DNA of 64,000 bases from NCBI RefSeq assembly GCF_003018255.1, contig NZ_CP027440.1, one strand, 5' to 3'. Below, in pieces: positions 39 to 21,469 of the stretch (positions are counted from its first letter, which is position 1; the number at the start of each line of letters is the position of its first letter). Source of the stretch: Escherichia coli (GTDB lineage: Bacteria; Pseudomonadota; Gammaproteobacteria; Enterobacterales; Enterobacteriaceae). The notes beneath the pieces were generated by a model. It was given only the letters and a program-made list of their open reading frames with translations. It did no database searches and was not told where the DNA came from. Position numbers and translations under genes: made by a program.

Positions 39-311
39 TTAAGATGGCAATGTGCAGATCATGTTATCAGAGTGGGGCGGTAGCGTATATTCCTTATACA
101 AACCATCATTCATTTCAATGATTGTTATTGAATTATTTATTGTTGTGAATAAAAAGACATTATGAATATTGGTTTGACTTTGCATATCAGGTTTTTTATT
201 ATTCGCTCTAATGTACGAGCCTGTCGTGAATAACGTCGAGAACCCATCCGTTGCGTTTGTGATTATTTTGTTGACTAAACAGACACCCGTTTCTCTGAAG
301 TAAAATCCCAT
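39..311 (-). CDS. hypothetical small protein (90 aa) in AT-rich DNA upstream of the first IS copy
   Basis: ORF track only; AT-rich, no recognisable motif; may be an orphan accessory remnant. Confidence 0.25.
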   Translation of the reverse strand: MGFYFRETGVCLVNKIITNATDGFSTLFTTGSYIRANNKKPDMQSQTNIHNVFLFTTINNSITIIEMNDGLYKEYTLPPHSDNMICTLPS

Positions 312-462
312 ACTAAATCATCACATAACCATGACATTTTTCTGATATTCCCCGGTAACGCCAGATGTCGACTCGCTTATCTCATCCGCCCGACATGTTG
401 TACATGCAATATGTGCGGATTATTATTCATTTTCACGGAGGTTGCTATGTCAACCGGATTAC

Positions 463-1753
463 CAGGGAAAGATCACGTAACGCTGCTTTTTTGCACTAAA
501 TAATTCGCATTTTATGTTTAAAAATTGAGATATTCCTCATTACCTGAAGCTGTTTTTTATTGCGTATACATGTTCAAATACTCCTTACATAATTAAGGAG
601 AACAAAATGGAACTTAAAAAATTGATGGAACATATTTCTGTTATCCCCGATTACAGACAAGCCTGGAAAGTGGAACATAAATTGTCGGATATTCTACTGT
701 TGACTATTTGTGCCGTTATTTCTGGTGCAGAAGGCTGGGAAGATATAGAGGATTTTGGGGAAACACATCTCGATTTTTTGAAGCAATATGGTGATTTTGA
801 AAATGGTATTCCTGTTCACGATACCATTGCCAGAGTTGTATCCTGTATCAGTCCTGCAAAATTTCACGAGTGCTTTATTAACTGGATGCGTGACTGCCAT
901 TCTTCAGATGATAAAGACGTTATTGCAATTGATGGAAAAACGCTCCGGCATTCTTATGACAAGAGTCGCCGCAGGGGAGCGATTCATGTCATTAGTGCGT
1001 TCTCAACAATGCACAGTCTGGTCATCGGACAGATCAGGACGGATGAGAAATCCAATGAGATCACAGCTATCCCAGAACTTCTTAACATGATGGATATTAA
1101 AGGAAAAATCATCACAACTGATGCGATGGGTTGCCAGAAAGATATCGCAGATAAGATACAAAAACAGGGCGGTGATTATTTATTCGCTGTAAAAGGAAAT
1201 CAGGGGCGGCTTAATAAAGCCTTTGAGGAAAATTTCCCACTGAAAGAATTAAATAATCCAGAGCATGACAGTTACGCAATTAGTGAAAAAAGTCACGGCA
1301 GAGAAGAAATCCGTCTTCATATTGTTTGCGATGTCCCTGATGAACTTATTGATTTCATGTTTGAATGGAAAGGTCTGAAGAAATTATGCGTGGCAGTCTC
1401 CTTTCGGTCAATAATAGCAGAACAAAAGAAAGAGCCAGAAATGACGGTCAGATATTATATCAGTTCTGCTGATTTAACCGCAGAGAAGTTCGCCACAGCA
1501 ATCCGAAACCACTGGCACGTGGAGAATAAGCTGCACTGGCGTCTGGACGTGGTAATGAATGAAGACGACTGCAAAATAAGAAGAGGAAATGCAGCAGAAT
1601 TATTTTCAGGGATACGGCACATCGCTATTAATATTTTAACGAATGATAATGTATTCAAGGCAGGGTTAAGACGTAAGATGCGAAAAGCAGCCATGGACAG
1701 AAACTACCTGGCGTCAGTCCTTGCGGGGAGCGGGCTTTCGTAATCTTTCCCTG
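463..1753 (+). mobile_element. ISAs1-family (H-repeat type) insertion sequence, copy 1, 1291 bp
   Basis: Imperfect terminal inverted repeats CAGGGAAAGATCACG (left, from 463) and CGTAATCTTTCCCTG (right, ending 1753); single 378-aa transposase ORF; near-identical second copy at 7125..8415. Confidence 0.8.
607..1743 (+). CDS. ISAs1-family DDE transposase (H-repeat-associated protein, YdcC/YhhI-like), 378 aa
   Basis: Protein begins [11 protein letters not shown] and carries the [13 protein letters not shown] region typical of H-rpt proteins; SD AAGGAG 7 nt upstream of ATG. Confidence 0.85.
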
Positions 1754-2359
1754 AACACCGAGGTGCTGAATAACCGCACCACGGATGTGATAAACAACCA
1801 TGCTGAGACCATCGGCAACAATCAGGTGATTGCGGTTACCAACAATCAGATACAGACGGTGGGCGTTAACCAGATAGAGACGGTGGGCAGTAACCAGATC
1901 ATTAAAGTGGGCTCTGTTCAGGTGGAAACGATTGGACTTGTTCGTGCGCTGACCGTGGGCGTGGCGTATCAGACGACGGTAGGTGGCATTATGAACACCT
2001 CGGTGGCCCTGATGCAGTCCTCGCAGATCGGTTTGCATAAATCGTTGATGGTCGGGCTGGGTTATGACGTCAAAGTCGGAAATAACGTTACCTTCACCGT
2101 TGGTAAAACGAAAAAGGATGATACCGGACAGACCGCGATTTACTCCGCCGGTGAGCATCTGGAACTCTGCTGTGGTAAGGCAAGGCTGGTGCTGACTAAG
2201 GACGGACAAATTTTTCTCAACGGCACAAAAATTCATTTGCAGGGTAAGGAGCAGGTTAATGGTGACTCACTGTTGATTAACTGGAACTGTGCAGCCTCGA
2301 AATCCCCACCGAAGACCCCTGATGAAAAGCAGGATACGCCGGATATGAGAGAGTACTGA
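1754..2359 (+). pseudogene. vgrG: vgrG 3' remnant (T6SS spike C-terminal repeat region), 5' part removed at the IS right end
   Basis: Translation shows VgrG-type repeats (VGVNQIETVGSNQIIKVGSVQVETIG); the track ORF start at 1721 lies inside the IS, so there is no native start. Confidence 0.65.
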
Positions 2360-2425
2360 TCCCGTACCTGTTCGGTATTCAGTAACAAACAAGCATTAAA
2401 AATAAACAGAAGAAGGAATTGAATC

Positions 2426-5400
2426 ATGAGCGGAAAACCAGCGGCGCGTCAGGGAGATATGACTCAGTATGGCGGTCCCATTGTCCAGGGTTCGGCAGGT
2501 GTAAGAATTGGCGCGCCCACCGGCGTGGCGTGCTCGGTGTGTCCGGGCGGGATGACTTCGGGCAACCCGGTAAATCCGCTGCTGGGGGCGAAGGTGCTGC
2601 CCGGCGAGACGGACCTTGCGCTGCCCGGCCCGCTGCCGTTCATTCTCTCCCGCACCTACAGCAGCTACCGGACGAAGACGCCTGCGCCGGTGGGGATTTT
2701 TGGCCCCGGCTGGAAAGCGCCTTCTGATATCCGCTTACAGATACGCGATGATGCACTGGTACTCAACGACAACGGCGGACGGAGCATTCACTTTGAGCCG
2801 CTGCTGCCGGGTGAGGCGGTGTACAGCCGCAGCGAGTCAATGTGGCTGGTGCGCGGTGGTAAGGCAGCGCAGCCGGACGGCCACACGCTGGGGCGGCTGT
2901 GGGGGGCGCTGCCGCCGGATATCCGGTTAAGCCCGCATCTTTACCTGGCGACCAGCAGCGCACAGGGACCGTGGTGGATACTGGGGTGGTCAGAGCGGGT
3001 GCCGGGTGCTGAGGACGTACTGCCAGCGCCGCTGCCGCCGTACCGGGTGCTGACGGGGCTGGCGGACCGCTTCGGGCGGACGCTGACGTACCGGCGTGAG
3101 GCCGCCGGCGACCTGGCCGGGGAAATCACCGGCGTGACGGACGGTGCCGGGCGTGAGTTCCGTCTGGTGCTGACCACGCAGGCGCAGCGTGCGGAAGAGG
3201 CCCGCACCTCTTCGCTATCTTCTTCTGACCGTCCCCGCCCTCTCTCAGTCTCAGCGTTCCCCGACACACTGCCCGGTACCGAATACGGCCCCGACAGGGG
3301 TATCCGCCTTTCGGCGGTGTGGCTGATGCACGACCCGGCATACCCGGAGAGCCTGCCCGGTGCGCCACTGGTGCGGTACACGTATACGGAAGCCGGTGAA
3401 CTGCTGGCGGTATATGACCGCAGCAATACGCAGGTGCGCGCTTTCACGTATGACGCGCAGCACCCGGGCCGGATGGTGGCGCACCGTTACGCGGGAAGGC
3501 CGGAGATGCGCTACCGCTACGACGATGCGGGGCGGGTGGTGGAGCAGCTGAACCCGGCAGGCCTGAGTTACCGCTACCAGTATGAGCAGGACCGCATCAC
3601 CGTCACCGACAGCCTGAACCGGCGTGAGGTGCTGCATACAGAAGGCGGGGCCGGGCTGAAGCGGGTGGTGAAAAAAGAACTGGCGGACGGCAGCGTCACG
3701 CACAGCGGGTATGACGCGGCAGGAAGGCTCACGGCACAGACGGACGCGGCGGGACGGCGGACAGAGTACGGCCTGAATGTGGTGTCCGGCGATATCACGG
3801 ATATCACCACGCCGGACGGGCGGGAGACGAAATTTTACTATAACGACGGGAACCAGTTAACGGCGGTGGTGTACCCGGACGGGCTGGAGAGCAGCCGGGC
3901 ATATGATGAGCTGGACAGACTGGTATCGGAGACATCGCGCAGCGGGGAGACAGTACGCTACCGCTACGATGACGTGCACAGTGAGTTACCGGCGACGACA
4001 ACGGATGCGACGGGCAGCACCCGGCAGATGACCTGGAGCCGCTACGGGCAGTTGCTGGCCTTCACCGACTGCTCGGGCTACCAGACCCGCTATGAATACG
4101 ACCGCTTCGGCCAGATGACGGCGGTTCACCGCGAGGAAGGTATCAGCCTTTACCGCCACTATGACAACCGTGGCCGGTTAACCTCGGTGAAAGACGCACA
4201 GGGCCGTGAAACGCAGTATGAGTACAACGCCGCAGGCGACCTGACTGCCGTTATCACCCCGGACGGCAACCGGAGCGAGACACAGTACGATGCGTGGGGA
4301 AAGGCGGTCAGCACCACGCAGGGCGGGCTGACGCGCAGTATGGAGTACGATGCTGCCGGACGTGTCATCAGCCTGACCAACGAGAACGGCAGTCACAGCG
4401 ACTTCAGCTACGATGCGCTGGACCGCCTGGTACAGCAGGGCGGCTTTGACGGGCGGACGCAACGTTATCATTATGACCTGACCGGAAAACTCACGCAGAG
4501 TGAAGATGAGGGGCTTGTCATCCTCTGGTACTACGATGAATCGGACCGTATCACTCACCGCACGGTGAACGGCGAACCGGCAGAGCAGTGGCAGTATGAT
4601 GGCCACGGCTGGCTGAGAGAAATCAGCCACCTGAGCGAAGGCCACCGTGTTGCCGTCCACTATGGCTACGACGATAAGGGCCGTCTGACCGGGGAGCGCC
4701 AGACGGTGGAGAACCCGGAGACGGGGGAACTGCTGTGGCAGCATGAGACGAAACAGGCATACAACGAACAGGGGCTGGCAAACCGCGTCACGCCGGACAG
4801 CCTGCCGCCGGTGGAGTGGCTGGCCTATGGCAGCGGTTATCTGGCGGGCATGAAGCTGGGCGGGACGCCGCTGCTGGAGTACATGCGGGACAGACTGCAC
4901 CGGGAGACGGTGCGCAGCTTCGGCAGCATGGCAGGCAATACAGCCGCATATGAACTGACCAGCACTTACACCCCCGCAGGCCAGTTACAGAGCCGGCACC
5001 TGAACAGCCTGGTGTTTGATTGTGACTATAACTGGAATGACAACGGCGACCTGATGCGCATCAGCGGCCCGCGACAGACGCGGGAATACGGCTACAGCGC
5101 CACGGGCAGGCTGGAGAGCGTGCGCACCCTCGCACCGGACCTGGACATCCGCATCCCGTATGCCACCGACCCGGCGGGCAACCGGCTGCCGGACCCGGAG
5201 CTGCACCCGGACAGTACACTCACAGTGTGGCCGGATAACCGAATCACCGAAGACGCGCACTACCTGTACCGTTACGATGAATACGGCAGGCTGGCGGAGA
5301 AGACGGACCGCATCCCGGCGGGTGTGATACGGACGGACGACGAGCGGACCCACCACTACCACTACGACAGCCAGCACCGCCTGGTGTTCTATACGCGGAT

Positions 5401-6586
5401 ACAGCATGGCGAGCCACTGGTCGAGAGCCGCTACCTTTACGACCCGCTGGGCCGCCGGACGGGTAAACGGGTATGGCGGCGGGAGCGTGACCTGACGGGG
5501 TGGATGTCGCTGTCGCGTAAACCGGAGGTGACGTGGTACGGCTGGGACGGCGACCACCTGACGACGGTGCAGACCGACACCACGCGTATCCAGACGGTAT
5601 ATCAGCCGGGGAGCTTCGCGCCGCTCATCCGCATCGAAACAGACAACGGTGAGCGGGAGAAAGCGCAGCGCCGCAGCCTGGCGGAGAAGCTGCAGCAGGA
5701 AGGGAGCGAGGACGGGCACGGCGTGGTATTTCCGGCTGAACTGGTGCGGCTGCTGGACAGACTGGAGGAAGAAATCCGGGCAGACCGCGTGAGCAGTGAA
5801 AGCCGGGCGTGGCTTGCGCAGTGCGGGCTGACGGTGGAGCAACTGGAAAAACAGGTGGAGCCGGAATACACACCGGCGCGAAAAGTTCATCTTTACCACT
5901 GCGACCACCGGGGACTGCCGCTGGCGCTTATCAGCGAAGACGGCAATACGGTGTGGAGCGCGGAGTATGATGAATGGGGAAACCTGCTTAATGAGGAGAA
6001 CCCGCATCATGTGTATCAGTCATACCGTCTGCCGGGGCAGCAGCATGATGAGGAGTCGGGGCTGTACTACAACCGGAACCGGTACTACGATCCGTTGCAG
6101 GGGCGGTATATCATCCAGGACCCGATAGGGCTGGCGGGGGGAATAAACCCGTACAGTTATGTTATGAACAATCCTGTGCAATGGATTGATCCATTGGGAT
6201 TAGCTCATACTTCAGGAAAATGGAAGGACTGTGGTAAAGGTTGTCGAATCCGAATAGATGGCGATGCTGTTGGTGACGGAAGACATTTGCATTGGGAGTG
6301 TAAAAATGGGAGTGGTGTAATGGGGGAATTTGGAGGTATGTCCCATGGTGAGGATTACTCATCAGCACCAAATAGCATTAAGAAATGTGCAAAAAAATAT
6401 GGTTTCGAGCCAGAACCAAGTAAAGATCTGTCATGCAAAACCTCCGGGCTATCAACTACTGATGCGGCTCTTGCAACTGGTGCTACAATTGGCGCAGGGT
6501 ATGTTATATATAGAGTGATTCGATTTATACCTTCACTTGCACCACCTCTTTGGTGGTCAATACCTGCAAACGTTGTTACTCCATGA
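2426..6586 (+). CDS. rhsE: Rhs family polymorphic toxin, full length (1386 aa): N-terminal domain, YD-repeat shell, PxxxxDPxGL motifs, divergent C-terminal tip
   Basis: N-terminus [31 protein letters not shown] and many YD repeats; DPIGLAGG at ~6120-6140 and WIDPLGL at ~6184-6204; GC-rich core then AT-rich ~125-aa tip; SD GAAGAAGGA upstream. Symbol is by position only. Confidence 0.85.
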
Positions 6587-6957
6587 TTAAAACGGATAAT
6601 GGAGATTATATAATGAGCGATTTTGACATTGTGAGTTCAATTGACTGGCATGATGGGGTTTTGTTAGAAGTAAAAACGACATTCAAAGAATCTCATTTTA
6701 ACATGACGTTATTTATTGACATTTATAAAAATGAGAACATTAGGGAAAAAATGATAGTTGAATTTTCTGATGTAGATGATTTAGTGTTCGCTATGGATTC
6801 TGCTGAGTTAATCGATAATCACAAGTCAGGTAATATAAGTAATGGGTATGTAAAGAAATTAAAAAACAAAAGGATATATAAATTTTTTCTTTATTTTTCT
6901 GATGGCTTATTAAGCATGACATTTAAAAATTTACAATTAATAAAACCATTAGAGTAA
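6583..6957 (+). CDS. putative cognate Rhs immunity protein (RhsI-like, ~124 aa)
   Basis: ATG overlaps the rhs TGA stop (ATGA) around 6583-6586; AT-rich like the toxin tip; no hydrophobic segment. Start could instead be 6550 or 6613. Confidence 0.6.
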
Positions 6958-6995
6958 CCAAATAAAAGGACTGGAGGAATCAGGGGAAGATCATT

Positions 6996-7021
6996 AAAGT
7001 TGTGATTATCATCACAACTTT
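6996..7021. repeat. perfect 11-bp inverted repeat AAAGTTGTGAT-TATC-ATCACAACTTT
   Basis: Read directly; lies ~40 bp after the immunity stop; terminator-like or protein-binding palindrome. Confidence 0.5.
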
Positions 7022-7124
7022 AATCTTGGTTTCACCTTGTTGATTTGATTAAAATTTAATCGCCAAATAATTAAATATATTAGAAAAGGACGTCTGGTGA
7101 ACATTCAAAGTCTTCTTGAGCATA

Positions 7125-8415
7125 CAGGGAAAGATCATCAGAAGTACACTTTTTGTACTAAATAATTCGCATTTTATGTTTAAAAATTGAGATATTCCTC
7201 ATTACCTAAAGCTGTTTTTTATTGCTTATACATGATCAAATACTCCTTACATAATTAAGGAGAACAAAATGGAACTTAAAAAATTGATGGGACATATTTC
7301 TATTATCCCCGATTACAGACAAACCTGGAAAGTGGAACATAAATTGTCAGATATTCTACTGTTGATTATTAGTGCCGTTATTTCTGGTGCAGAAGGCTGG
7401 GAAGATATAGAGGATTTTGGGGAAACACATCTCGATTTTTTAAAGCAATATGGTGATTTTAAAAATGGTATTCCTGTTCACGATACCATTGCCAGAGTTG
7501 TATCCTGTATCAGTCCTGCAAAATTTCACGAGTGCTTTATTAACTGGATGCGTGACTGCCATTCTTCAGATGATAAAGACGTCATTGCAATTGATGGAAA
7601 AACGCTCCGGCATTCTTATGACAAGAGTCGTCGCAGGGGAGCGATTCATGTCATTAGTGCATTCTCAACAATGCACAGTCTGGTCATCGGACAGATCAGG
7701 ACGGATGAGAAATCTAATGAGATTACAGCTATCCCTGAACTTCTTAACATGCTGGACATTAAAGGAAAAATTATCACAACTGATGCGATGGGTTGCCAGA
7801 AAGATATTGCAGAGAAGATACAAAAACAGGGAGGTGATTATTTATTCTCTGTAAAAGGAAACCCGGGGCGGCTGAATAAAGCTTTTGAGGAAAAATTTCC
7901 ACTGAAAGAATTAAATAATCCAGAGCATGACAGTTACGCAATTAGTGAAAAGAGTCACGGCAGAGAAGAAATCCGTCTTCACATTGTTTGCGATGTCCCT
8001 GATGAACTTATTGATTTCACGTTTGAATGGAAAGGTCTGAAGAAATTATGCGTGGCAGTCTCCTTTCGGTCAATAATAGCAGAACAAAAGAAAGAGCCAG
8101 AAATGACGGTCAGATATTATATCAGTTCTGCTGATTTAACCGCAGAGATGTTCGCCACAGCAATCCGAAACCACTGGCACGTGGAGAATAAGCTGCACTG
8201 GCGTCTGGACGTGGTAATGAATGAAGACGACTGCAAAATAAGAAGAGGAAACGCCGCAGAATTATTTTCAGGGATACGGCACATCGCTATTAATATTTTA
8301 ACGAATGATAAGGTATTCAAGGCAGGGTTAAGACGTAAGATGCGAAAAGCAGCCATGGACAAAAACTATCTGGCGTCAGTCCTTGCGGGGAGCGGGCTTT
8401 CGTAATCTTTCCCTG
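7125..8415 (+). mobile_element. ISAs1-family (H-repeat type) insertion sequence, copy 2, 1291 bp, same orientation as copy 1
   Basis: Same terminal repeats (CAGGGAAAGATCA ... CGTAATCTTTCCCTG) and same length as copy 1; internal sequence near-identical with scattered substitutions. Confidence 0.8.
7269..8405 (+). CDS. ISAs1-family DDE transposase (H-repeat-associated protein), 378 aa, copy 2
   Basis: Same length and register as 607..1743 with several substitutions (e.g. [15 protein letters not shown] vs [15 protein letters not shown]). Confidence 0.85.
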
Positions 8416-8419
8416 TATT

Positions 8420-8707
8420 GTGAAATCATCAAGAGTACATATAGATCATGATAAAGATATTTTTGATGGCCTTGACAAAATCTTGGCTTTTTCCGATAAA
8501 AATAAGCATGAGTATTTTTTATATATAAAGGCATATTGGCTCAGTTTATACTTTTGTGAAATTTCTCAGAAAGTGAGAGAAAGAGATAAGTTGTCATTTT
8601 ATTATGATGAATTTTCTGTCCGATTTCCTAATGTTGTCCTATATCCGACATACTTCCAATTGCATGGTTTAGCATCTGAAAAGTCATTGTTAATTCGAGA
8701 CGCTTGA
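8420..8707 (+). pseudogene. AT-rich ORF abutting the IS right end; possible orphan Rhs immunity remnant
   Basis: 95-aa ORF begins 5 bp after the IS end; composition resembles the immunity gene; no convincing native start context. Confidence 0.3.
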
Positions 8708-8986
8708 TTGTCCACTATATCAAAATAGTCATGCCCCGGAATTTTCTCACATTAGTCCATAAGGGATTCAATTTTTGTAATTGCACCCTGAAAAAACCGC
8801 AAAAGTGCTTTGTCGTGTCCTGTCGCAATGAAGTCTGGTGTTAATGTTATACTTTAATTGATATTTAAAGAGATGGCTTCTTTGCTTATATAAATACCCA
8901 TCTATTCTTTCTCAAAAATATTGGCTCAGATTAACCATGTTCCACGCAAACAATTTTCAAACATTCATCAATAGATAAGGAATTCC

Positions 8987-9454
8987 ATGATTATACGACC
9001 AGTCAAACCTTCAGATGTTGAACCATTACTGGATATGCTGCTTGCCAGTGGACAATTTAATCAAGATGGCCTTCATCATGTACAAAAAACACTAACACAT
9101 TATTTCTCAGGTCAATCTGCCGATTTATGGTTTAGTGCAGAACACTTAGGACTGGCAGGGATTGCCTATTGCGCTCCTGAAGTGATGACAAATGATGTCT
9201 GGAATTTATTAATGCACTGGATCAGTCCTTCCCATCAGCGCCAGGGAGTGGGACATCTGCTGATTAACGAAATAGAAAAGGAGCTCACAATTAAACAGGC
9301 AAGACTACTTTTAGTAGAGACCTCCAGCTATGTCGATTTTAGTGCCGCCCGCGCATTTTATACATAACAGGGCTTTATCAATGAAGCTATAATACGCAAT
9401 TACTATGATGTTGGTGAGGATAAATTAATCTTCACTAAAAATATGCAATCGTGA
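8987..9454 (+). pseudogene. GNAT-family N-acetyltransferase with an in-frame TAA (9365-9367); reading frame continues 28 codons to TGA at 9452-9454
   Basis: SD AAGG 7 nt upstream; acetyl-CoA motif QRQGVGH; the stop sits where GNAT motif B expects a lysine (AFYT-stop-QGF). Confidence 0.65.
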
Positions 9455-9520
9455 GATAAAATATGCTTTTAACTCATATTGAAACATTGCTTAAGCAACT
9501 TGGTTGCTGCATATGATTCT

Positions 9521-10090
9521 TTAGCCCGCGGTGACTCGCTTGCCGCTGGTAACAAACGTGCCAGCGCCTAAATGATGCAACGTATTGAGCTTATCATCAT
9601 CAAACTGCCAGCGGCCTTCGACAAATACCCGTGCGTCTGCCGCTGCTGATACCACTTCGCCAAACAGCGTGTCGTATTTCTCTTGCGCGGAAGTCGCTGG
9701 TAGCAATCGGCACTCCATCCACGCCAGACATTTCTCTTCAACAAGTGGCAAACCAAGCACCGGACCTTTCACCACCGGAATGCCATAGCAATAAAATTTA
9801 TCCTCTTCACGCCCAGATACACTTCCCACTGCCCACGTCCAGTTAGTCGCTGCAACGCCTGGGATAACGATGCCAAATTTACCGTTACGCTCAATCAACT
9901 CCCTGGTCCATGTCGACTTATCTACCACAATCGCCACGCGTGGAGGTTCAAACTCCACCGGCATTGACCAGGCTGCAGCCATAATGTTACGCCGCTGGGA
10001 TTGCTCATCGAAACTGGTGATCAAGACAGTTGGGCCATGATTTAACAGACGGCTGGCATGGTGTAATTCGACGGGAATGAATTGGCTCAC
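9521..10090 (-). CDS. yddH: flavin reductase-like protein YddH (189 aa)
   Basis: Full-length ORF; sequence recalled as K-12 YddH. Confidence 0.8.
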   Translation of the reverse strand: MSQFIPVELHHASRLLNHGPTVLITSFDEQSQRRNIMAAAWSMPVEFEPPRVAIVVDKSTWTRELIERNGKFGIVIPGVAATNWTWAVGSVSGREEDKFYCYGIPVVKGPVLGLPLVEEKCLAWMECRLLPATSAQEKYDTLFGEVVSAAADARVFVEGRWQFDDDKLNTLHHLGAGTFVTSGKRVTAG

Positions 10091-10264
10091 GATATCGCCT
10101 CGCTATGAAGGGTGTTTTAAAAGCGTAGCTCGTAACGCAATAAGTAACGAAATTAACGGGATTGGCGATTTGCGAACGTGATGCATGTCCGCGATCGCAC
10201 AAAATAGCCGGTGCGGCGTCTATTCCAGGTTATAAGTTGAGAAAACCACTAAGGGAAACGCCTG

Positions 10265-11110
10265 ATGACGCCCATTCTGAATCATTATTTTGCCCGTATT
10301 AACTGGTCGGGAGCTGCTGCGGCCAATATTGATACGCTTCGTGCATTGCACCTGAAACACAATTGCACCATTCCGTTTGAAAACCTCGACGTTTTGCTGC
10401 CGAGGGAAATACAGCTTGATGATCAATCGCTGGAAGAGAAACTGGTGATAGCCCGTCGTGGTGGTTACTGTTTTGAGCAGAATGGCGTGTTTGAGCGGGT
10501 GTTACGCGAGCTGGGGTTTAACGTTCGCAGCTTGTTAGGGCGCGTAGTGTTATCAAATCCGCCAGCATTACCGCCGCGCACCCATCGTTTGCTGTTGGTG
10601 GAACTGGAAGGGGAAAAATGGATTGCTGATGTCGGTTTCGGTGGGCAGACGCTAACCGCGCCGATTCGTTTAATGCCGGATATCATGCAAACCACGCCAC
10701 ACGGAGAGTATCGGTTGTTGCAAGAGGGTGATGATTGGGTGTTGCAGTTTAATCATCATCAGCACTGGCAGTCGATGTACCGTTTTGATCTCTGCGAGCA
10801 GCAACAAAGCGATTATGTGATGGGCAATTTCTGGTCGGCGCACTGGCCGCAGTCGCATTTTCGCCATCATTTGCTGATGTGTCGCCATTTGCCGGACGGT
10901 GGCAAGCTAACGCTGACCAATTTTCATTTTACCCATTATGAAAATGGGCACGCAGTTGAGCAGCGAAATCTACCAGATGTGGCGTCGTTATATGCCGTGA
11001 TGCAGGAACAGTTTGGTCTGGGCGTAGATGATGCGAAACATGGCTTTACTGTGGATGAGTTAGCGCTGGTGATGGCGGCGTTTGATACGCACCCGGAGGC
11101 GGGAAAATAA
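10265..11110 (+). CDS. nhoA: N-hydroxyarylamine O-acetyltransferase (281 aa)
   Basis: MTPILNHYFARINWSG N-terminus and arylamine N-acetyltransferase length. Confidence 0.9.
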   Translation: MTPILNHYFARINWSGAAAANIDTLRALHLKHNCTIPFENLDVLLPREIQLDDQSLEEKLVIARRGGYCFEQNGVFERVLRELGFNVRSLLGRVVLSNPPALPPRTHRLLLVELEGEKWIADVGFGGQTLTAPIRLMPDIMQTTPHGEYRLLQEGDDWVLQFNHHQHWQSMYRFDLCEQQQSDYVMGNFWSAHWPQSHFRHHLLMCRHLPDGGKLTLTNFHFTHYENGHAVEQRNLPDVASLYAVMQEQFGLGVDDAKHGFTVDELALVMAAFDTHPEAGK

Positions 11111-11119
11111 TTTATGTCA

Positions 11120-11200
11120 GGTTGCCGGATGTGGCGTAAACGCCTTATCCGGCCTACATTAGCCCGGTTGTAGACCTGATAAGCGAAGCGCATCAGGCAA
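11120..11200. repeat. two REP (repetitive extragenic palindromic) elements between convergent nhoA and yddE
   Basis: TGCCGGATGTGGCGTAAACGCCTTATCCGGCCTAC and TGTAGACCTGATAAGCGAAGCGCATCAGGCA match the E. coli REP family. Confidence 0.8.
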
Positions 11201-11205
11201 CGGTT

Positions 11206-12099
11206 TCAGAGTTCAATTGCCCATTCGGCATGAAACAAAATCACCGCCACGCCAGAAATGGTGACTTTCTCCGGTTGGTTATCACGAATTGTCACCGTCA
11301 CTTCAATCACGCCGTCACGCCCTAATGCGCGCCCCTGATGGCCTTTAACACGCAACACGTTGCCATCGTGGGGCAATACGTTGTGATGTACTAACCATGC
11401 ACCCATCGGGCCATTGGCATTGCCAGTCACCGGATCTTCCACAATACCAATGGCAGGCGAGAACATACGACCGTCGGTTTCGTTTTTGTCTGGGCGGATC
11501 TGGAACGGGAAGAAACCATTGCAGCCAATCTGTTTGCTGATAGCGGTCAGCGCATTAAGGTCAGGCGAAAGGGCGTCGATATCCACTTCCGGTTTCAGTG
11601 GGATCATCACTTTTGAGTGTCCTGTGGTTGCCACCTGAATTGGCAAGCCTGGCAGAATATCGTCTTCAGTGAGATGAAGCGCGTTGATAATCGCCGCACG
11701 TGTTTCACCTTCCAGCGGTGACTCAAAGCCCGGCGTACCTTGTTCCAGCGAAATACGATAATCATCGTTGTGCTTTTCGATAGTCACGCGATGTTTTCCT
11801 GCCAGCGATGTTTGCCAGACCGTGCAATTTCCTAAACCTAACACCTTTGCACGTACATAGTGCGCAGCTACTGTCGCGTGACCACAAATCGGAACTTCAA
11901 CCGTTGGCGTAAAGTAGCGGATGCGCACATCGCTGTCGTCGCTGTGCAGCAGAAAAGCAGTTTCCGAATGACCTAACTCGCGGGCGATAAGCTGCATTTG
12001 CGCTTCACTGAGATTATCGGCGGGGAAAACAACACCGGCAGAATTGCCGCGAAACGGTTGAGAGGTAAAAGCATCGACGTGGTAAACCTGCGGTTTCAT
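11206..12099 (-). CDS. yddE: PhzF-family isomerase-like protein YddE (297 aa)
   Basis: Full-length ORF; K-12 synteny. Confidence 0.8.
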   Translation of the reverse strand: MKPQVYHVDAFTSQPFRGNSAGVVFPADNLSEAQMQLIARELGHSETAFLLHSDDSDVRIRYFTPTVEVPICGHATVAAHYVRAKVLGLGNCTVWQTSLAGKHRVTIEKHNDDYRISLEQGTPGFESPLEGETRAAIINALHLTEDDILPGLPIQVATTGHSKVMIPLKPEVDIDALSPDLNALTAISKQIGCNGFFPFQIRPDKNETDGRMFSPAIGIVEDPVTGNANGPMGAWLVHHNVLPHDGNVLRVKGHQGRALGRDGVIEVTVTIRDNQPEKVTISGVAVILFHAEWAIEL

Positions 12100-18926: not shown

Positions 18927-20315
18927 TTATTTTTGGCTGAACTTCCGCCGACCATAAACCAGCCAGGTCAGTAGCACACAAACGATGTAGAAGATTAAAA
19001 ACACTTTCATCGCGCCCACCGGAGAGCCGGTCATATTGAGCGACATGCCAAACGCCTGCGGAATAAAAAAGCCGCCCACTGCGCCAATGGCTGAGATAAA
19101 GCCCAGAGCGGCTGCCGTTTCGGTGATGGCTTCTCTTTGAGCTTGCTCATCACTACCGCCTTTCATCTTCACCCGATAAATTGTTATCTGGCGAAAGATG
19201 ACGGCGATCATCTGGAAAGTAGAACCACTTCCCAGACCCGCGGTCAGAAACAGCCCCATAAATACGGCGTAAAATGCGATGAAATTACCGGAGCCTGTGC
19301 CCGGTAAGGTAAGGAACAGCAGGGCGCTGAAAATCGCCATAAAAATGAAGTTGATCAACGTCACCCGCACGCCGCCGAATTTATCGGAAATAGCACCACC
19401 AACCGATCGCGCGATGGCACCGATAAATGGGCCAAAGAACGCCAGGCGCAGAATATTCACATCCGGGAACTGGGTTTTTGCCAGCATGGCAAAACCCGCA
19501 GAAAAACCGATAAACGAACCGAAGGTGGCAAGGTAAAGCAGGCTCAGCAGCCAGAGATGCAGGCGTTGTAAGACAGGGAGCTGGTCGGCAATTGAGGCGC
19601 GTGAACTGGCGATATCATTCATCCCTGACCAGGCGGCGATCGTGGCAATCGCCAGTAATGGCACCCAAATCCATGCGGCATTCGCCAGCGACATCACCGA
19701 ACCGTCGGCCTGCGGTACGCCATTGACGCCGAGAAAGGCAAATACGGGGACAAAAATGACCAGCGGTGCAACCAGCTGCATCACACTTACACCTAAGTTT
19801 CCTAATCCGCCATTAATCCCAAGAGCGCTCCCTTGTTTGGCTTTTGGAAAGAAGAAACTGATATTGCCCATGCTCGAAGCAAAGTTCGCACCTGCAAAAC
19901 CGCATAGCAAAGCGATAACGATAAATATCCCAAAAGGAGTATTCGGATTCTGCACGGCAATTCCGAGCCAGACGCAAGGAATAATCAGGATTGCAGTACT
20001 AAAAACCGTCCATCGGCGTCCACCGAATATAGGCACCATAAAGGAGTAGGGGACACGCAATAATGCGCCAGAAACGGAGGGTAATGCGGTTAATAAAAAG
20101 AGTTGATCGGTAGTGAAATTAAAACCGATTTTATTGAGATTAACAGTAACTGCGCTAAATAGCATCCAGACACAGAAGGCAAGAAGTAGGCAACTGACTG
20201 ATATCCAGAGGTTTCTTCGTGCAATATGCTTTCCTTTATTTTCCCAGAAGGCCGGATTTTCTGGTTTCCAGTCGCGTAAAAGATAACGACTATTTTTCTC
20301 ATTTTGCAGTGCCAT
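18927..20315 (-). CDS. narU: nitrate/nitrite transporter NarU (462 aa, MFS)
   Basis: Start set at MALQNEKNSRYLL within the track ORF. Confidence 0.85.
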   Translation of the reverse strand: MALQNEKNSRYLLRDWKPENPAFWENKGKHIARRNLWISVSCLLLAFCVWMLFSAVTVNLNKIGFNFTTDQLFLLTALPSVSGALLRVPYSFMVPIFGGRRWTVFSTAILIIPCVWLGIAVQNPNTPFGIFIVIALLCGFAGANFASSMGNISFFFPKAKQGSALGINGGLGNLGVSVMQLVAPLVIFVPVFAFLGVNGVPQADGSVMSLANAAWIWVPLLAIATIAAWSGMNDIASSRASIADQLPVLQRLHLWLLSLLYLATFGSFIGFSAGFAMLAKTQFPDVNILRLAFFGPFIGAIARSVGGAISDKFGGVRVTLINFIFMAIFSALLFLTLPGTGSGNFIAFYAVFMGLFLTAGLGSGSTFQMIAVIFRQITIYRVKMKGGSDEQAQREAITETAAALGFISAIGAVGGFFIPQAFGMSLNMTGSPVGAMKVFLIFYIVCVLLTWLVYGRRKFSQK

Positions 20316-20587
20316 ATTGTTCCTCACATGCACACATTGGTAATGAAAAAAAGACAAAACAGGAGGTAAGGCGCAATAGCCAGTTATTAGAATTAAGGAT
20401 GAATCAGGTGAAGTGCTGATTAGAAGAATAGATAAGAAAGCGTAACTGCGGGGGCAGAATGTGGATTAAACAGACAGATATGTGTTACTAAATGTAACTA
20501 AAATGGCTTTCTGGTATTTGAAATTTATTTTTTAATATTGTCAGAATTTATCTGATTAACTGCCGGGCCGTAGACCCGACAATTATT

Positions 20588-21469
20588 TTAGCCACGACGT
20601 GTCGCCAGCCAGCAGAGCAGGGAACCGCCGCAGACCATTAGCGCGCCTTGCCAGAACGAGAACGACAGCGGGGCGCTGAGCAGCACGGCTGCAAGCGCTG
20701 AGGAAAGGACGGGCGTAAAATACGAACCTACCGCCATAATGGTGACGTTGCCATGTAATATACCGACGTTCCATGCAGCATAAGCAAATCCTAAGGTAAA
20801 TGCCGCAGAGATGAGTTTAATCATGACTGGCGTGCTAAATACCATTTCTGGTTGTGGCGTGAGAAAATAGTAAACCCACAGACTTGCTCCCGTTAGCAGG
20901 ACAAAAACGGTAATTCCGTTAAATCCGCGTGCGTATTTATTCGTTACTGTGCAGTAGGCTGCCCAGATAAACGCACCAATAAACGACAGGAAATAACTCA
21001 ATGGGCTGGTGGTGATATTATTGATGATTTCATCATAATGTAACCCATTGTCACCACCTAACACCCAGCAGACGCCGACCAGGGCTAATAATAATCCTGG
21101 TACAATCAGCCAGTTGGTTTTCTGACCATTAAACAGAATGGCAAAGAGAATTGTCAGGCTGGGCCATAGATAGTTCACCATCCCCACTTCAATCGCCTGA
21201 TGACGGGTCGCCGCATACCCTAAGGAAAGCGCCAGACAGATTTCATAGCTGACGAATAACAGACTCCCGGCGAGTAAATAGCCTTTCGGGATCTGCCGAA
21301 TACGCGGAAATCCAACCGTGAAGATTAACAGCAGCCCGCTTAATGAATAGATAGCAGCTGCGCCGCCGACCGGGCCGAGCCCCTCACTGACACCGCGAAT
21401 CAATCCTACCATCGTGCTCCACAGGACGATCGCTATTAGCCCTATGAGCGTTGCTTTTTGTCGTGTCAT
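20588..21469 (-). CDS. yddG: aromatic amino acid exporter YddG (293 aa, DMT family)
   Basis: 10-TM-type hydrophobic protein; K-12 synteny. Confidence 0.85.
   Translation of the reverse strand: MTRQKATLIGLIAIVLWSTMVGLIRGVSEGLGPVGGAAAIYSLSGLLLIFTVGFPRIRQIPKGYLLAGSLLFVSYEICLALSLGYAATRHQAIEVGMVNYLWPSLTILFAILFNGQKTNWLIVPGLLLALVGVCWVLGGDNGLHYDEIINNITTSPLSYFLSFIGAFIWAAYCTVTNKYARGFNGITVFVLLTGASLWVYYFLTPQPEMVFSTPVMIKLISAAFTLGFAYAAWNVGILHGNVTIMAVGSYFTPVLSSALAAVLLSAPLSFSFWQGALMVCGGSLLCWLATRRG

Follow-up and report, generated by a model that had tools for sequence, protein, structure and literature searches.

Organization of the RhsE locus

The stretch of Escherichia coli DNA that we analysed (64 kb, hereafter the window) carries at its left end a vgrG remnant, an rhs gene and a presumed immunity gene, with one insertion sequence on either side of this group and the stump of a third element. 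The locus is RhsE, the region that yncG-yncH and yddH-nhoA flank both in K-12 and in the three nearest genomes. Over 11.9 kb the window and strain JNE112863 are 99.96% identical, while strain DETEC-S792 is 1.7% divergent over these 12 kb, with most of the differences near yddH or within the rhs core. The features are collected in Table 1.

Table 1. Features of the RhsE locus in the window (position 1 is the first nucleotide of the window).
Feature	Coordinates	Strand	Characteristics
First 16 nt of vgrG (ATG TCA ACC GGA TTA C)	447..462	+	GGAGG ribosome-binding site upstream; intact in ATCC 8739
ISEc1/H-repeat-type ISAs1-family IS, copy 1	463..1753	+	1291 bp; left end type A CAGGGAAAGATCACGTAACGCTGCT; no target-site duplication
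Transposase ORF, copy 1	607..1743	+	378 aa; NF033564 413.5 bits; Pfam PF13808 and PF01609
3' vgrG remnant, codons 502-702 and stop	1754..2359	+	Alignment to 19KM1776 and ATCC 8739; PGAP remnant call
rhs gene, 1386 aa, with Tox-WTIP C-terminal toxin domain	2426..6586	+	NF041261 RHS_core 2704.7 bits; Pfam PF15654 E 2.5e-13, last 148 aa
Presumed cognate immunity gene, 114 aa, annotated hypothetical protein WP_001279013.1	6613..6957	+	Position directly 3' of the rhs toxin tip
Left end (144 bp) of third ISAs1-family element, K-12 yncI type	6981..7124	+	Terminal repeat CAGGGGAAGATC; 72% nucleotide identity to K-12 yncI left end
ISEc1/H-repeat-type ISAs1-family IS, copy 2	7125..8415	+	1291 bp; left end type B CAGGGAAAGATCATCAGAAGTACAC; no target-site duplication
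Transposase ORF, copy 2	7269..8405	+	378 aa; NF033564 405.6 bits; 15 aa differences from copy 1
3' fragment of 220-aa backbone gene ('aminopeptidase' or hypothetical)	8416..8707	+	Truncated precisely where copy 2 ends

The product of the 114-aa gene gave no family match in a profile search, and it is from its position after the toxin tip of rhs that we presume it to be a putative immunity protein. WP_001279013.1 stands behind the same toxin tip in other genomes too, including a case where the pair lies within an orphan module. On the distal side of the locus, 8416 is the exact point at which homology of the rhs-less genomes GF4-3 and PT62 to the window begins, and in those genomes this point falls within an intact 663-bp gene. 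The right junction of copy 2 is present in 46 genomes, and the other genomes listed for RhsE have a 'ydcC' ISEc1-type element downstream of rhs. Copy 2 is thus the long-resident 'ydcC' H-repeat at the distal edge of the vgrG-rhs island.

Two diverged ISEc1-type copies

Elements of the ISAs1 family are about 1.2-1.5 kb long, have terminal inverted repeats that begin with CAGGG and on insertion produce a target-site duplication of about 8-10 bp. Both copies have the size (1291 bp) and the CAGGG-type repeats of the family, and each has a single intact ORF for a DDE transposase that fits the family profile NF033564 ('ISAs1 family transposase', NCBIfam), with scores far above its cut-off of 70 bits, which bears out the original prediction on this point; the Pfam search was run on the ORF of copy 1. 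The copies lie in direct orientation. Homology between them starts at 463/7125 and stops at 1753/8415 without indels, so that the length and coordinates predicted for both proved exact, and both have the ends CAGGGAAAGAT...ATCTTTCCCTG.

The copies differ at 50 nucleotides (3.9%; 96.1% identity). The coding sequence holds 36 of these, in 21 synonymous and 15 non-synonymous codons (dN/dS 0.18), and 11 of the 50 are bunched at IS positions 14-25 and 32, for which reason the left inverted repeats are common to both copies for 13 bp only. The terminal repeat reads CAGGGAAAGATCA at the left end and, as the reverse complement, CAGGGAAAGATTA at the right end; copy 1 has 20 of 25 positions in common between its left and right ends, and copy 2 has 12 of 13, after which its match ends. 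The two copies had been described as sharing the same terminal inverted repeats and differing by scattered substitutions. The extreme ends are indeed shared and alignment confirms the substitutions, but the left repeats agree only over those 13 bp and the cluster just inside them is not scattered. A promoter scan placed a promoter-like site at 565-593, upstream of the copy 1 transposase ORF. No further ISEc1 copies were found in the 64-kb window. We also considered a conserved terminator hairpin in the ISEc1 left end and dropped it, since the folding of the left ends did not surpass that of shuffled sequence (z +1.1 and +0.25).

We named the elements by comparison with annotated genome copies (K-12, ATCC 8739 and the RhsC locus). 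Identity is 97.1-97.3% to the PGAP-named ISEc1 copy in ATCC 8739 and 96.0-96.5% at the nucleotide level to the K-12 ydcC and yhhI elements. Copy 2, whose gene PGAP calls ydcC in other genomes, is 96.5% identical to the ydcC element that K-12 carries at this same locus, and it has closer relatives among RhsC-locus copies in other genomes (98.6%). Of 5,426 complete E. coli genomes only 3 have copy 1 at 100% identity, always at the same site, and its next best matches (98.8%) are RhsC-locus copies annotated 'ISAs1-like element ISEc1 family transposase'. As both copies have closer relatives elsewhere than each other, the view that they are old copies and not the result of a recent duplication holds. 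The three related genomes, JNE112863, JNE23-011 and DETEC-S792, have 11 ISEc1-like places, against a median of 5. By a rough count in which many flanks were short, Rhs or VgrG genes lie near 7 of about 24 enterobacterial close relatives and VgrG lies within 10 kb of 1 of about 56 distant ISAs1 relatives, and on this difference we rejected Rhs association as a trait of the whole ISAs1 family.

Interruption of vgrG by copy 1

The intact vgrG of ATCC 8739 reads ATGTCAACCGGATTAC followed directly by GTTTCAC. In the window 1,487 bp of the gene (codon 6 to 501) are absent between 462 and 1754, and copy 1 is flanked by vgrG codon 5 on the left and codon 502 on the right, from which it follows that the gene was interrupted in place and not brought along with the element. 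The placement of the remnant comes from alignment of window positions 1752-7124 to positions 4948-10314 of the 19KM1776 locus, where vgrG occupies 3447-5555, and the ATCC 8739 coordinates agree. PGAP describes the remnant in three related genomes as 'T4 gp5 trimerisation domain protein, missing N-terminus'. Three of 5,426 complete E. coli genomes have the junction between IS and vgrG codon 502, each of them at RhsE, and in the genomes listed for it the upstream region 1-462 runs unbroken into an annotated VgrG gene; among 3,579 genomes with region 1-462, 3,485 have 80% or more of it covered at a single place.

Since 1,487 bp were removed when copy 1 arrived or in a later event at one of its ends, the vgrG spike gene upstream of rhs is now a pseudogene, and the Tox-WTIP Rhs may be undeliverable unless another VgrG carries it. 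The window and DETEC-S792 have this vgrG::IS allele in common despite their 1.7% divergence, so that the allele may be older than the word 'recent' implies or may have spread by recombination.

A yncI-type stump and the origin of the upstream frames

The original prediction overlooked the third ISAs1-family element, which copy 2 cuts off. Its stump comprises a hairpin (6993-7024; -25.3 kcal/mol, z -6.7), which was listed as a terminator-like site, a T-rich run, a ribosome-binding site and a GTG at 7097 with 9 transposase codons; the N-terminus of K-12 yncI scores 198.7 bits against NF033564. Strain 19KM1776 retains 21 codons of the yncI-type ORF, VNIQSLLEHIPIILDLNEPNG. At least four states of the left junction of copy 2 exist, namely the window type, one longer by 35 bp, one longer by 92 bp and the 1.2-kb K-12 yncI. 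A simple nested-deletion series at this end holds in part only: the +35-bp variant carries on the yncI-type ORF, and the +92-bp variant has unrelated sequence after codon 10. We likewise rejected copy 2 as a nested insertion in the yncI-type element, as the missing 3' end was looked for to the right of the IS, in K-12 and in the window, and was not found. An empty site for copy 2 was sought by joining its flanks (6900-7124 and 8416-8700), and these were contiguous in 0 of 601 matching genomes.

In both copies a short upstream frame with its own Shine-Dalgarno sequence had been noted to read into the left end and stop at the same TAA. Both frames do enter the IS in the same phase and share a TAA stop at IS positions 39-41. 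The start at ATG 447 is correct, but the GTG start lies at 7097 and not at 7099. The frames are not a feature of the IS: ATG 447 is the start of vgrG and the GTG is the start of the truncated yncI-type transposase, and the fresh ISEc1 insertions of JNE112863 and ATCC 8739 sit in intergenic DNA upstream of vgrG.

Target-site duplications and recent ISEc1 transposition

Target-site duplications had been proposed as a check at 463/1753 and 7125/8415; comparison of the flanks revealed none at copy 1, at copy 2 or around the pair taken as a unit. Nearly identical genomes do contain such duplications. Two fresh ISEc1 insertions, 65 and 396 bp upstream of copy 1, have perfect 10-bp duplications, GATCATGTTA in JNE112863 and GCCCGACATG in ATCC 8739, and thereby fix the element boundaries independently. 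As this type of element makes 10-bp duplications, their absence from the window points to later rearrangement of the flanks and not to non-membership in the family. A target duplication was kept by only 2 of 22 sampled copies.

Together with the vgrG junction these insertions give three independent insertion or junction sites within about 400 bp on the 5' side of vgrG (57-66, 388-397 and 462/463), all in the orientation of rhs and none derived from the resident neighbouring copy. The places where vgrG, rhs fragments and another IS are cut short also coincide with IS ends. This comparison of near-identical genomes provides clean evidence of ongoing ISEc1 transposition with 10-bp duplications, for which a literature search found no published account. 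It suggests, as a mildly new observation, that in this lineage ISEc1 is still transposing and has remodelled the vgrG-rhs locus more than once. The broader claim, that ISEc1/H-repeat elements are currently active in some E. coli lineages and are preferential remodellers of vgrG-rhs loci, we regard as doubtful. If the clustering does reflect target choice, or selection on the switching off or on of orphan T6SS effector modules, H-repeats would help to cut and reshuffle Rhs toxin arrays and would not be just passengers.

Origin of the bracketed arrangement

Two direct copies with intact transposases and intact outer ends (left for copy 1, right for copy 2) bracket the cargo, which had been likened to that of a composite transposon, and the demonstrable mobility of ISEc1, with fresh 10-bp duplications, would suit movement of the vgrG remnant, rhs and immunity gene as a single 7,953-bp unit. 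The flanks of this unit, which end in CCGGATTAC on the left and begin with TATTGTGAA on the right, show no duplication, however, and the cargo is neither foreign nor present in a second context: it occupies its native position in RhsE, where the backbone genes on either side are those of compared genomes that have no upstream IS, and the unit is found only at RhsE, in three genomes. With copies 3.9% diverged and of separate origin, and with copy 1 an interruption of vgrG in place, we consider such a transposon highly improbable; most genomes with the locus have an intact vgrG and no upstream IS, and the likeness goes unsupported. Even less credence can be given to the idea that copy 1 arose from copy 2 by local duplication or gene conversion, that is, by a hop of ydcC into vgrG 6.7 kb away. 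The copies do agree in orientation, locus and length, but a freshly transposed copy should nearly equal its donor, and this idea is refuted by their 50 differences, which include a replaced 12-bp subterminal patch. Copy 1 is closer to RhsC-locus elements of other strains (98.8%) than to copy 2 (96.1%), and neither window copy closely resembles the additional third copy of JNE112863 (97.1% and 96.1%).

The two direct repeats could serve as an active recombination substrate that often loops out the toxin/immunity module as a circle and leaves the population mixed for rhs presence and absence. It had been suggested that homologous recombination between the copies could excise or invert the module. 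Direct repeats cannot invert what lies between them, but RecA-dependent deletion is possible in principle, as identical runs of 128, 121 and 102 bp are enough for RecA, and Rhs loci are known recombination hot spots, the source of their name (PMC3032704). Deletions of the intervening segment were sought among complete genomes; the predicted product, an upstream region joined through one IS to 8416 onward (query 1-1753 plus 8416-9000), had full coverage in no genome, which is weak evidence against recombination because only three genomes carry both copies. A K-12 mobilome study, of another strain and arrangement, found no circular DNA from the rhsA-E regions (bioRxiv 10.1101/2024.07.17.603846). 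We think frequent excision unlikely.

We favor, with considerable confidence, an RhsE locus that has gathered three ISAs1-family elements of different ages, with copy 2 the resident and copy 1 a separate, recent variant in vgrG. Copy 2 adjoins an older yncI-type ISAs1 stump on its left and a truncated backbone gene on its right. Copy 1, a separate ISEc1 variant, would have entered vgrG recently in a small lineage, and its arrival, or a later event at one end, would have deleted the 1,487 bp. The likely route is either an adjacent deletion made by the transposase or recombination between two copies inserted in vgrG. Both of these events leave the same scar. Any transcription of rhs would then probably be by read-through from the promoter of the copy 1 transposase. 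Very probably the composite look is an accident of position and the cargo never moved with the copies. The copy pair is an ordinary by-product of IS activity and not a mobile toxin transposon, which is a caution that a toxin module between IS copies needs comparison with the native locus before it is called a transposon.

Comparison with known systems

Composite transposons bounded by direct IS copies are well known, for example Tn9 with IS1. The window resembles them in having two direct IS copies with intact outer ends around about 5.4 kb of non-IS genes, and differs in that its unit has no target duplication and is found nowhere else, its cargo is native and its IS copies are 3.9% diverged and of independent origin. 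There is also a likeness to the scars of IS-mediated adjacent deletion and of recombination between IS copies, which are known for IS1, IS10 and IS903; to our knowledge this mechanism has not been demonstrated for ISAs1-family elements. As in those scars, an IS end abuts a truncated gene without target duplication; examples are copy 1 (vgrG), either side of copy 2 (the yncI-type stump and the 220-aa gene) and the RhsC-locus copies, where the base next to the IS end is the first of an rhs fragment.

The H-rpt elements of K-12 (YdcC at RhsE, YhhI at RhsB and YbfL/YbfD at RhsC) are also 1291 bp long, with CAGGG...CCCTG ends and one 378-aa DDE transposase, and K-12 ydcC has the same locus and the same orientation relative to rhs as copy 2. 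Resident H-repeat copies mostly lack a target duplication, like those in the window. Unlike the K-12 elements, copy 1 interrupts vgrG, from which 1,487 bp are deleted, and only 3 public genomes have it in this position; the window copies also have different alleles of the 12-bp patch just inside the left terminal repeat. An H-repeat/ISEc1 element beside rhs is a textbook trait of E. coli Rhs loci, and annotation pipelines already label both copies. Knowledge of the family and of its association with Rhs goes back to 1993, when H-repeat (H-rpt) elements were described (Zhao et al. 1993, J Bacteriol 175:2799, as cited in PMC3032704). Transposition of H-rpt was reported as not observed (PMC3032704), whereas the comparison with JNE112863 and ATCC 8739 reveals two clean insertions with 10-bp duplications.

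A further system for comparison is that of Rhs C-terminal displacement with its orphan toxin/immunity arrays (Jackson et al. 2009, PMC2935791). In the window the main rhs has the Tox-WTIP tip and the 114-aa partner gene fused to it, and in TUM9757, CV839-06 and ATCC 8739 the same tip and partner form an orphan module behind another tip. The account of these arrays makes no mention of insertion sequences or transposases (Jackson et al. 2009), whereas the modules have ISEc1 copies between them or next to them both here and at RhsC.

Anatomy of the two H-repeat copies

A module comprising a vgrG remnant, rhs and a presumed immunity gene is bracketed by two ISEc1/H-repeat elements of the ISAs1 family (463-8415 overall). 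When window 400-1800 was aligned with 7062-8462, homology between copy 1 and copy 2 began at 463 and 7125 and ended at 1753 and 8415; each copy is 1291 bp long, with zero indels between them. Both transposase ORFs match NF033564 (cut-off 70 bits) over the whole model, and that of copy 1 also matches Pfam PF13808 and PF01609. The alignment and these matches bear out the coordinates, lengths, ORFs and family assignment of the original prediction.

The copies differ at 50 positions (3.9%). These had been described as scattered substitutions; the differences exist, but 11 of the 50 fall close together, at IS positions 14-25 and 32, where a subterminal patch reads CGTAACGCTGCT in copy 1 and TCAGAAGTACAC in copy 2. 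Both elements open with CAGGGAAAGATCA on the left and close with TAATCTTTCCCTG on the right, but because of the clustered patch the left terminal repeats are common to both copies for 13 bp only. Left and right ends agree at 20 of 25 positions in copy 1, while in copy 2 the agreement ends after 13; each patch allele recurs in other copies and other species. The transposase proteins differ at 15 residues, and the codon differences between their genes (21 synonymous, 15 non-synonymous) yield a dN/dS of 0.18, which indicates purifying selection on both genes for most of their separation.

Genes and other features within the flanked region, and elements of two RhsC loci (window coordinates unless a strain is named)
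Feature	Coordinates	Description
Transposase ORF, copy 1	607-1743	378 aa; NCBIfam NF033564 'ISAs1 family transposase', 413.5 bits
rhs	2426-6586	Full RHS core protein, 2704.7 bits; Tox-WTIP toxin tip PF15654, E 2.5e-13
Presumed immunity gene	6613-6957	114 aa; presumed from position after rhs only
Terminal sequence of yncI-type stump	from 6981	Opens with CAGGGGAAGATC
Hairpin in stump	6993-7024	Perfect 14-bp stem, -25.3 kcal/mol, z -6.7, then T-rich run
Ribosome-binding site, then GTG	GTG at 7097	3' of the hairpin in the stump
Transposase ORF, copy 2	7269-8405	378 aa; NCBIfam NF033564 'ISAs1 family transposase', 405.6 bits
ISEc1-like copy, strain 104 RhsC locus	4305-5596	
rhs fragment, strain 104 RhsC locus	5597-6244	
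ISEc1-like copy, strain SCU-171 RhsC locus	19489-20780	

Copy 2 and its flanks at the RhsE locus

The nearest public genome, strain JNE112863, is 99.96% identical over 11.9 kb. In this strain and two further relatives the region sits between ansP-yncG-yncH and yddH-nhoA-yddE, and by these neighbors we identify it as RhsE. In E. coli K-12 this locus contains rhsE, ydcD, the H-repeat pseudogene yncI, and ydcC ('H repeat-associated putative transposase'). Elsewhere the 64-kb window carries ordinary core-chromosome genes, nar, fdn, ddp, dos and gad among them. In the JNE112863 annotation, dosC (diguanylate cyclase) is reduced to a 165-bp C-terminal remnant (∼40020-40184 of the window, minus strand) between dosP and digH; a full dosC would not fit in this gap, so the dosCP operon appears truncated. 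Identity to JNE112863 is 99.96% over window 57-12000 and 99.46% over 8785-57782 (259 mismatches), a drop suggestive of recombination within some segment downstream.

The K-12 ydcC element, in the same place and orientation as copy 2, shares 96.5% identity with it, and the gene downstream of rhs and the immunity gene at this locus is annotated ydcC in other genomes. We regard copy 2 as the resident H-repeat of the RhsE locus. Strains GF4-3 and PT62, which lack rhs, align with the window from exactly 8416 onward, within an intact 220-aa gene, and on this comparison we take the right end of copy 2 to be a true island boundary; no genome in our search had the flanks of copy 2 joined as an empty site. 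To the right, 8416-9486 holds the 3' part of the 220-aa gene and a GNAT acetyltransferase gene (8987-9367). This segment is absent from K-12, where pptA follows the ydcC element and homology returns at 9487, so the IS right end borders different DNA in different lineages.

To the left of copy 2, the 144 bp at 6981-7124 are not anonymous spacer but the left terminus of another member of the ISAs1 family, of the K-12 yncI type, which had been overlooked. This stump is 72% identical to the K-12 yncI left end, and the N-terminal part of K-12 yncI matches the ISAs1 transposase model (198.7 bits). Strain 19KM1776 retains 35 bp more of the stump, where the ORF reads VNIQSLLEHIPIILDLNEPNG, a typical ISAs1 transposase N-terminus. 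The junction between stump and ydcC exists in at least four states across genomes, namely the window type (3 genomes), one with an additional 35 bp, one with an additional 92 bp that includes unrelated filler sequence, and the 1.2-kb K-12 yncI pseudogene, which points to repeated rearrangement at the IS left end. The stump hairpin, located just inside the terminal repeat, probably also terminates the rhs-immunity transcript. The K-12 yncI element carries the same hairpin with two compensatory changes; ISEc1 has no comparable structure at the matching position.

Copy 1 and the loss of vgrG

The intact vgrG of ATCC 8739 reads ATGTCAACCGGATTAC followed by GTTTCAC, and in the window copy 1 comes after the same 16 nt, so vgrG starts at ATG 447, which has a GGAGG before it. 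Right of copy 1 the sequence picks up at vgrG codon 502, 1,487 bp of the gene being missing. This junction was found in three of 5,426 complete genomes (JNE112863, JNE23-011 and DETEC-S792), to which the exact copy 1 sequence is also confined. The upstream region 1-462 is carried by 3,579 genomes (3,485 of them covering at least 80% in one place), and among the genomes listed it continues unbroken into an annotated VgrG gene. We interpret copy 1 as a rare later arrival that destroyed vgrG, a lineage-specific knockout. Elsewhere it is most similar (98.8%) to elements annotated as ISEc1 within the orphan arrays of RhsC loci in other strains, and such arrays also hold the closest relative of copy 2 (98.6%). 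Derivation of copy 1 from copy 2 was rejected, copy 1 being nearer to the RhsC-locus elements; the view that the copies are old and separately derived holds.

DETEC-S792 has the identical vgrG::IS allele, and its IS copies and junctions are identical to those of the window. Nearly all differences between the two fall in the rhs core (some 150 of 189, at window 2500-6000) and in another cluster at 9500-10000 near yddH, a pattern that suggests gene conversion among rhs paralogues.

A scan of the plus strand between the IS and rhs gave no promoter-like site, so any rhs expression would probably depend on read-through from the IS; vgrG promoter candidates sit upstream of copy 1, and a transposase promoter-like site lies at 565-593. 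The 114-aa gene after rhs had no family match in a profile search. In TUM9757, CV839-06 and ATCC 8739 its homologue comes after an incomplete rhs fragment, in an orphan module that lies 3' of a different tip, an arrangement that fits C-terminal displacement (PMC2935791).

Mobility of ISEc1

JNE112863 has an extra ISEc1 copy (3067-4357 of its locus) at window 57-66, with GATCATGTTA on either side as a perfect 10-bp duplication; the window holds the empty target site. Its identity is 97.1% with copy 1 and 96.1% with copy 2, which makes neither of them its donor. At a second, independent site, ATCC 8739 and ∼20 other genomes carry ISEc1 60 bp upstream of an intact vgrG (window 388-397), flanked by GCCCGACATG, again a 10-bp duplication. 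These two insertions fix the element ends at CAGGG/CCCTG and demonstrate conventional transposition, which for H-rpt is stated in a passage of PMC3032704, citing Zhao et al. 1993, not to have been observed. Together with 462/463, the sites make three within ∼400 bp, each with ISEc1 oriented as rhs is. Homology with K-12 halts at window 379, 9 bp from the ATCC 8739 insertion site, and restarts at 4623, just 7 bp on in K-12, implying a single deletion there of vgrG together with the 5' 2.2 kb of rhs.

We inspected 22 full-length ISEc1-like copies, several redundant between related genomes, from K-12, RhsC arrays, E. albertii, E. whittamii and Pseudocitrobacter among others. Two keep a duplication, those of JNE112863 and ATCC 8739, and the flanks of resident copies have evidently been rearranged.

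Mobility of the flanked module

The original prediction likened the arrangement to a composite transposon, a reading in which the two ISAs1 copies would move the toxin/immunity cargo as a unit. The structural resemblance is real: the repeats are direct, and outer ends and transposases are intact. As a mobile unit, the module fails every test. The flanks inspected show no target-site duplication at copy 1, at copy 2 or around the 463-8415 unit; the cargo is at its native RhsE site, the unit was seen at the RhsE locus only, and the two copies are of separate origin. A composite transposon is thus not supported. Excision or inversion by homologous recombination had also been proposed. Because the copies share identical runs of 128, 121 and 102 bp, recombination is physically plausible and the module could be deleted; inversion is ruled out because the repeats are direct. 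No genome in our search had the deletion product, though with just three carriers of both copies this says little about frequency.

Short frames upstream of each copy do read into the IS; they share a phase and end at one TAA (IS positions 39-41). A function for them was not borne out, since that at copy 1 is the vgrG start and that at copy 2 the start of the truncated yncI-type transposase. Two frames share a phase by chance one time in three, and the fresh insertions in JNE112863 and ATCC 8739 are intergenic, upstream of vgrG, and interrupt no gene; the shared phase is a coincidence and not a feature of the element.

Comparison with other ISEc1 loci

ISEc1-like sequence occurs in 5,342 of 5,426 E. 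coli genomes, at a median of 5 places per genome (11 in each of three relatives of the window). Among 80 loci with transposase relatives from other species, Rhs or VgrG coding sequence lay in the available flanks of 7 of ∼24 close enterobacterial relatives and near 1 of ∼56 distant ones (Vibrio, Alishewanella, Photorhabdus and others); many flanks were short, which makes the figures rough. On these counts the Rhs association, itself incomplete, belongs to the ISEc1 group and not to the whole family.

Overall, the original observation is confirmed and its interpretation partly supported. What appears mildly novel is that ISEc1 is demonstrably mobile and has repeatedly hit and trimmed this vgrG-rhs locus. 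The element itself is of a known kind in its classical setting. The RhsC loci of strains 104 and SCU-171 likewise contain several ISAs1 copies, all rhs-oriented and interspersed among SymE toxins and orphan toxin/immunity modules, and there an rhs fragment annotated 'missing N-terminus' directly abuts an ISEc1-like right end, much as the vgrG remnant does at copy 1.
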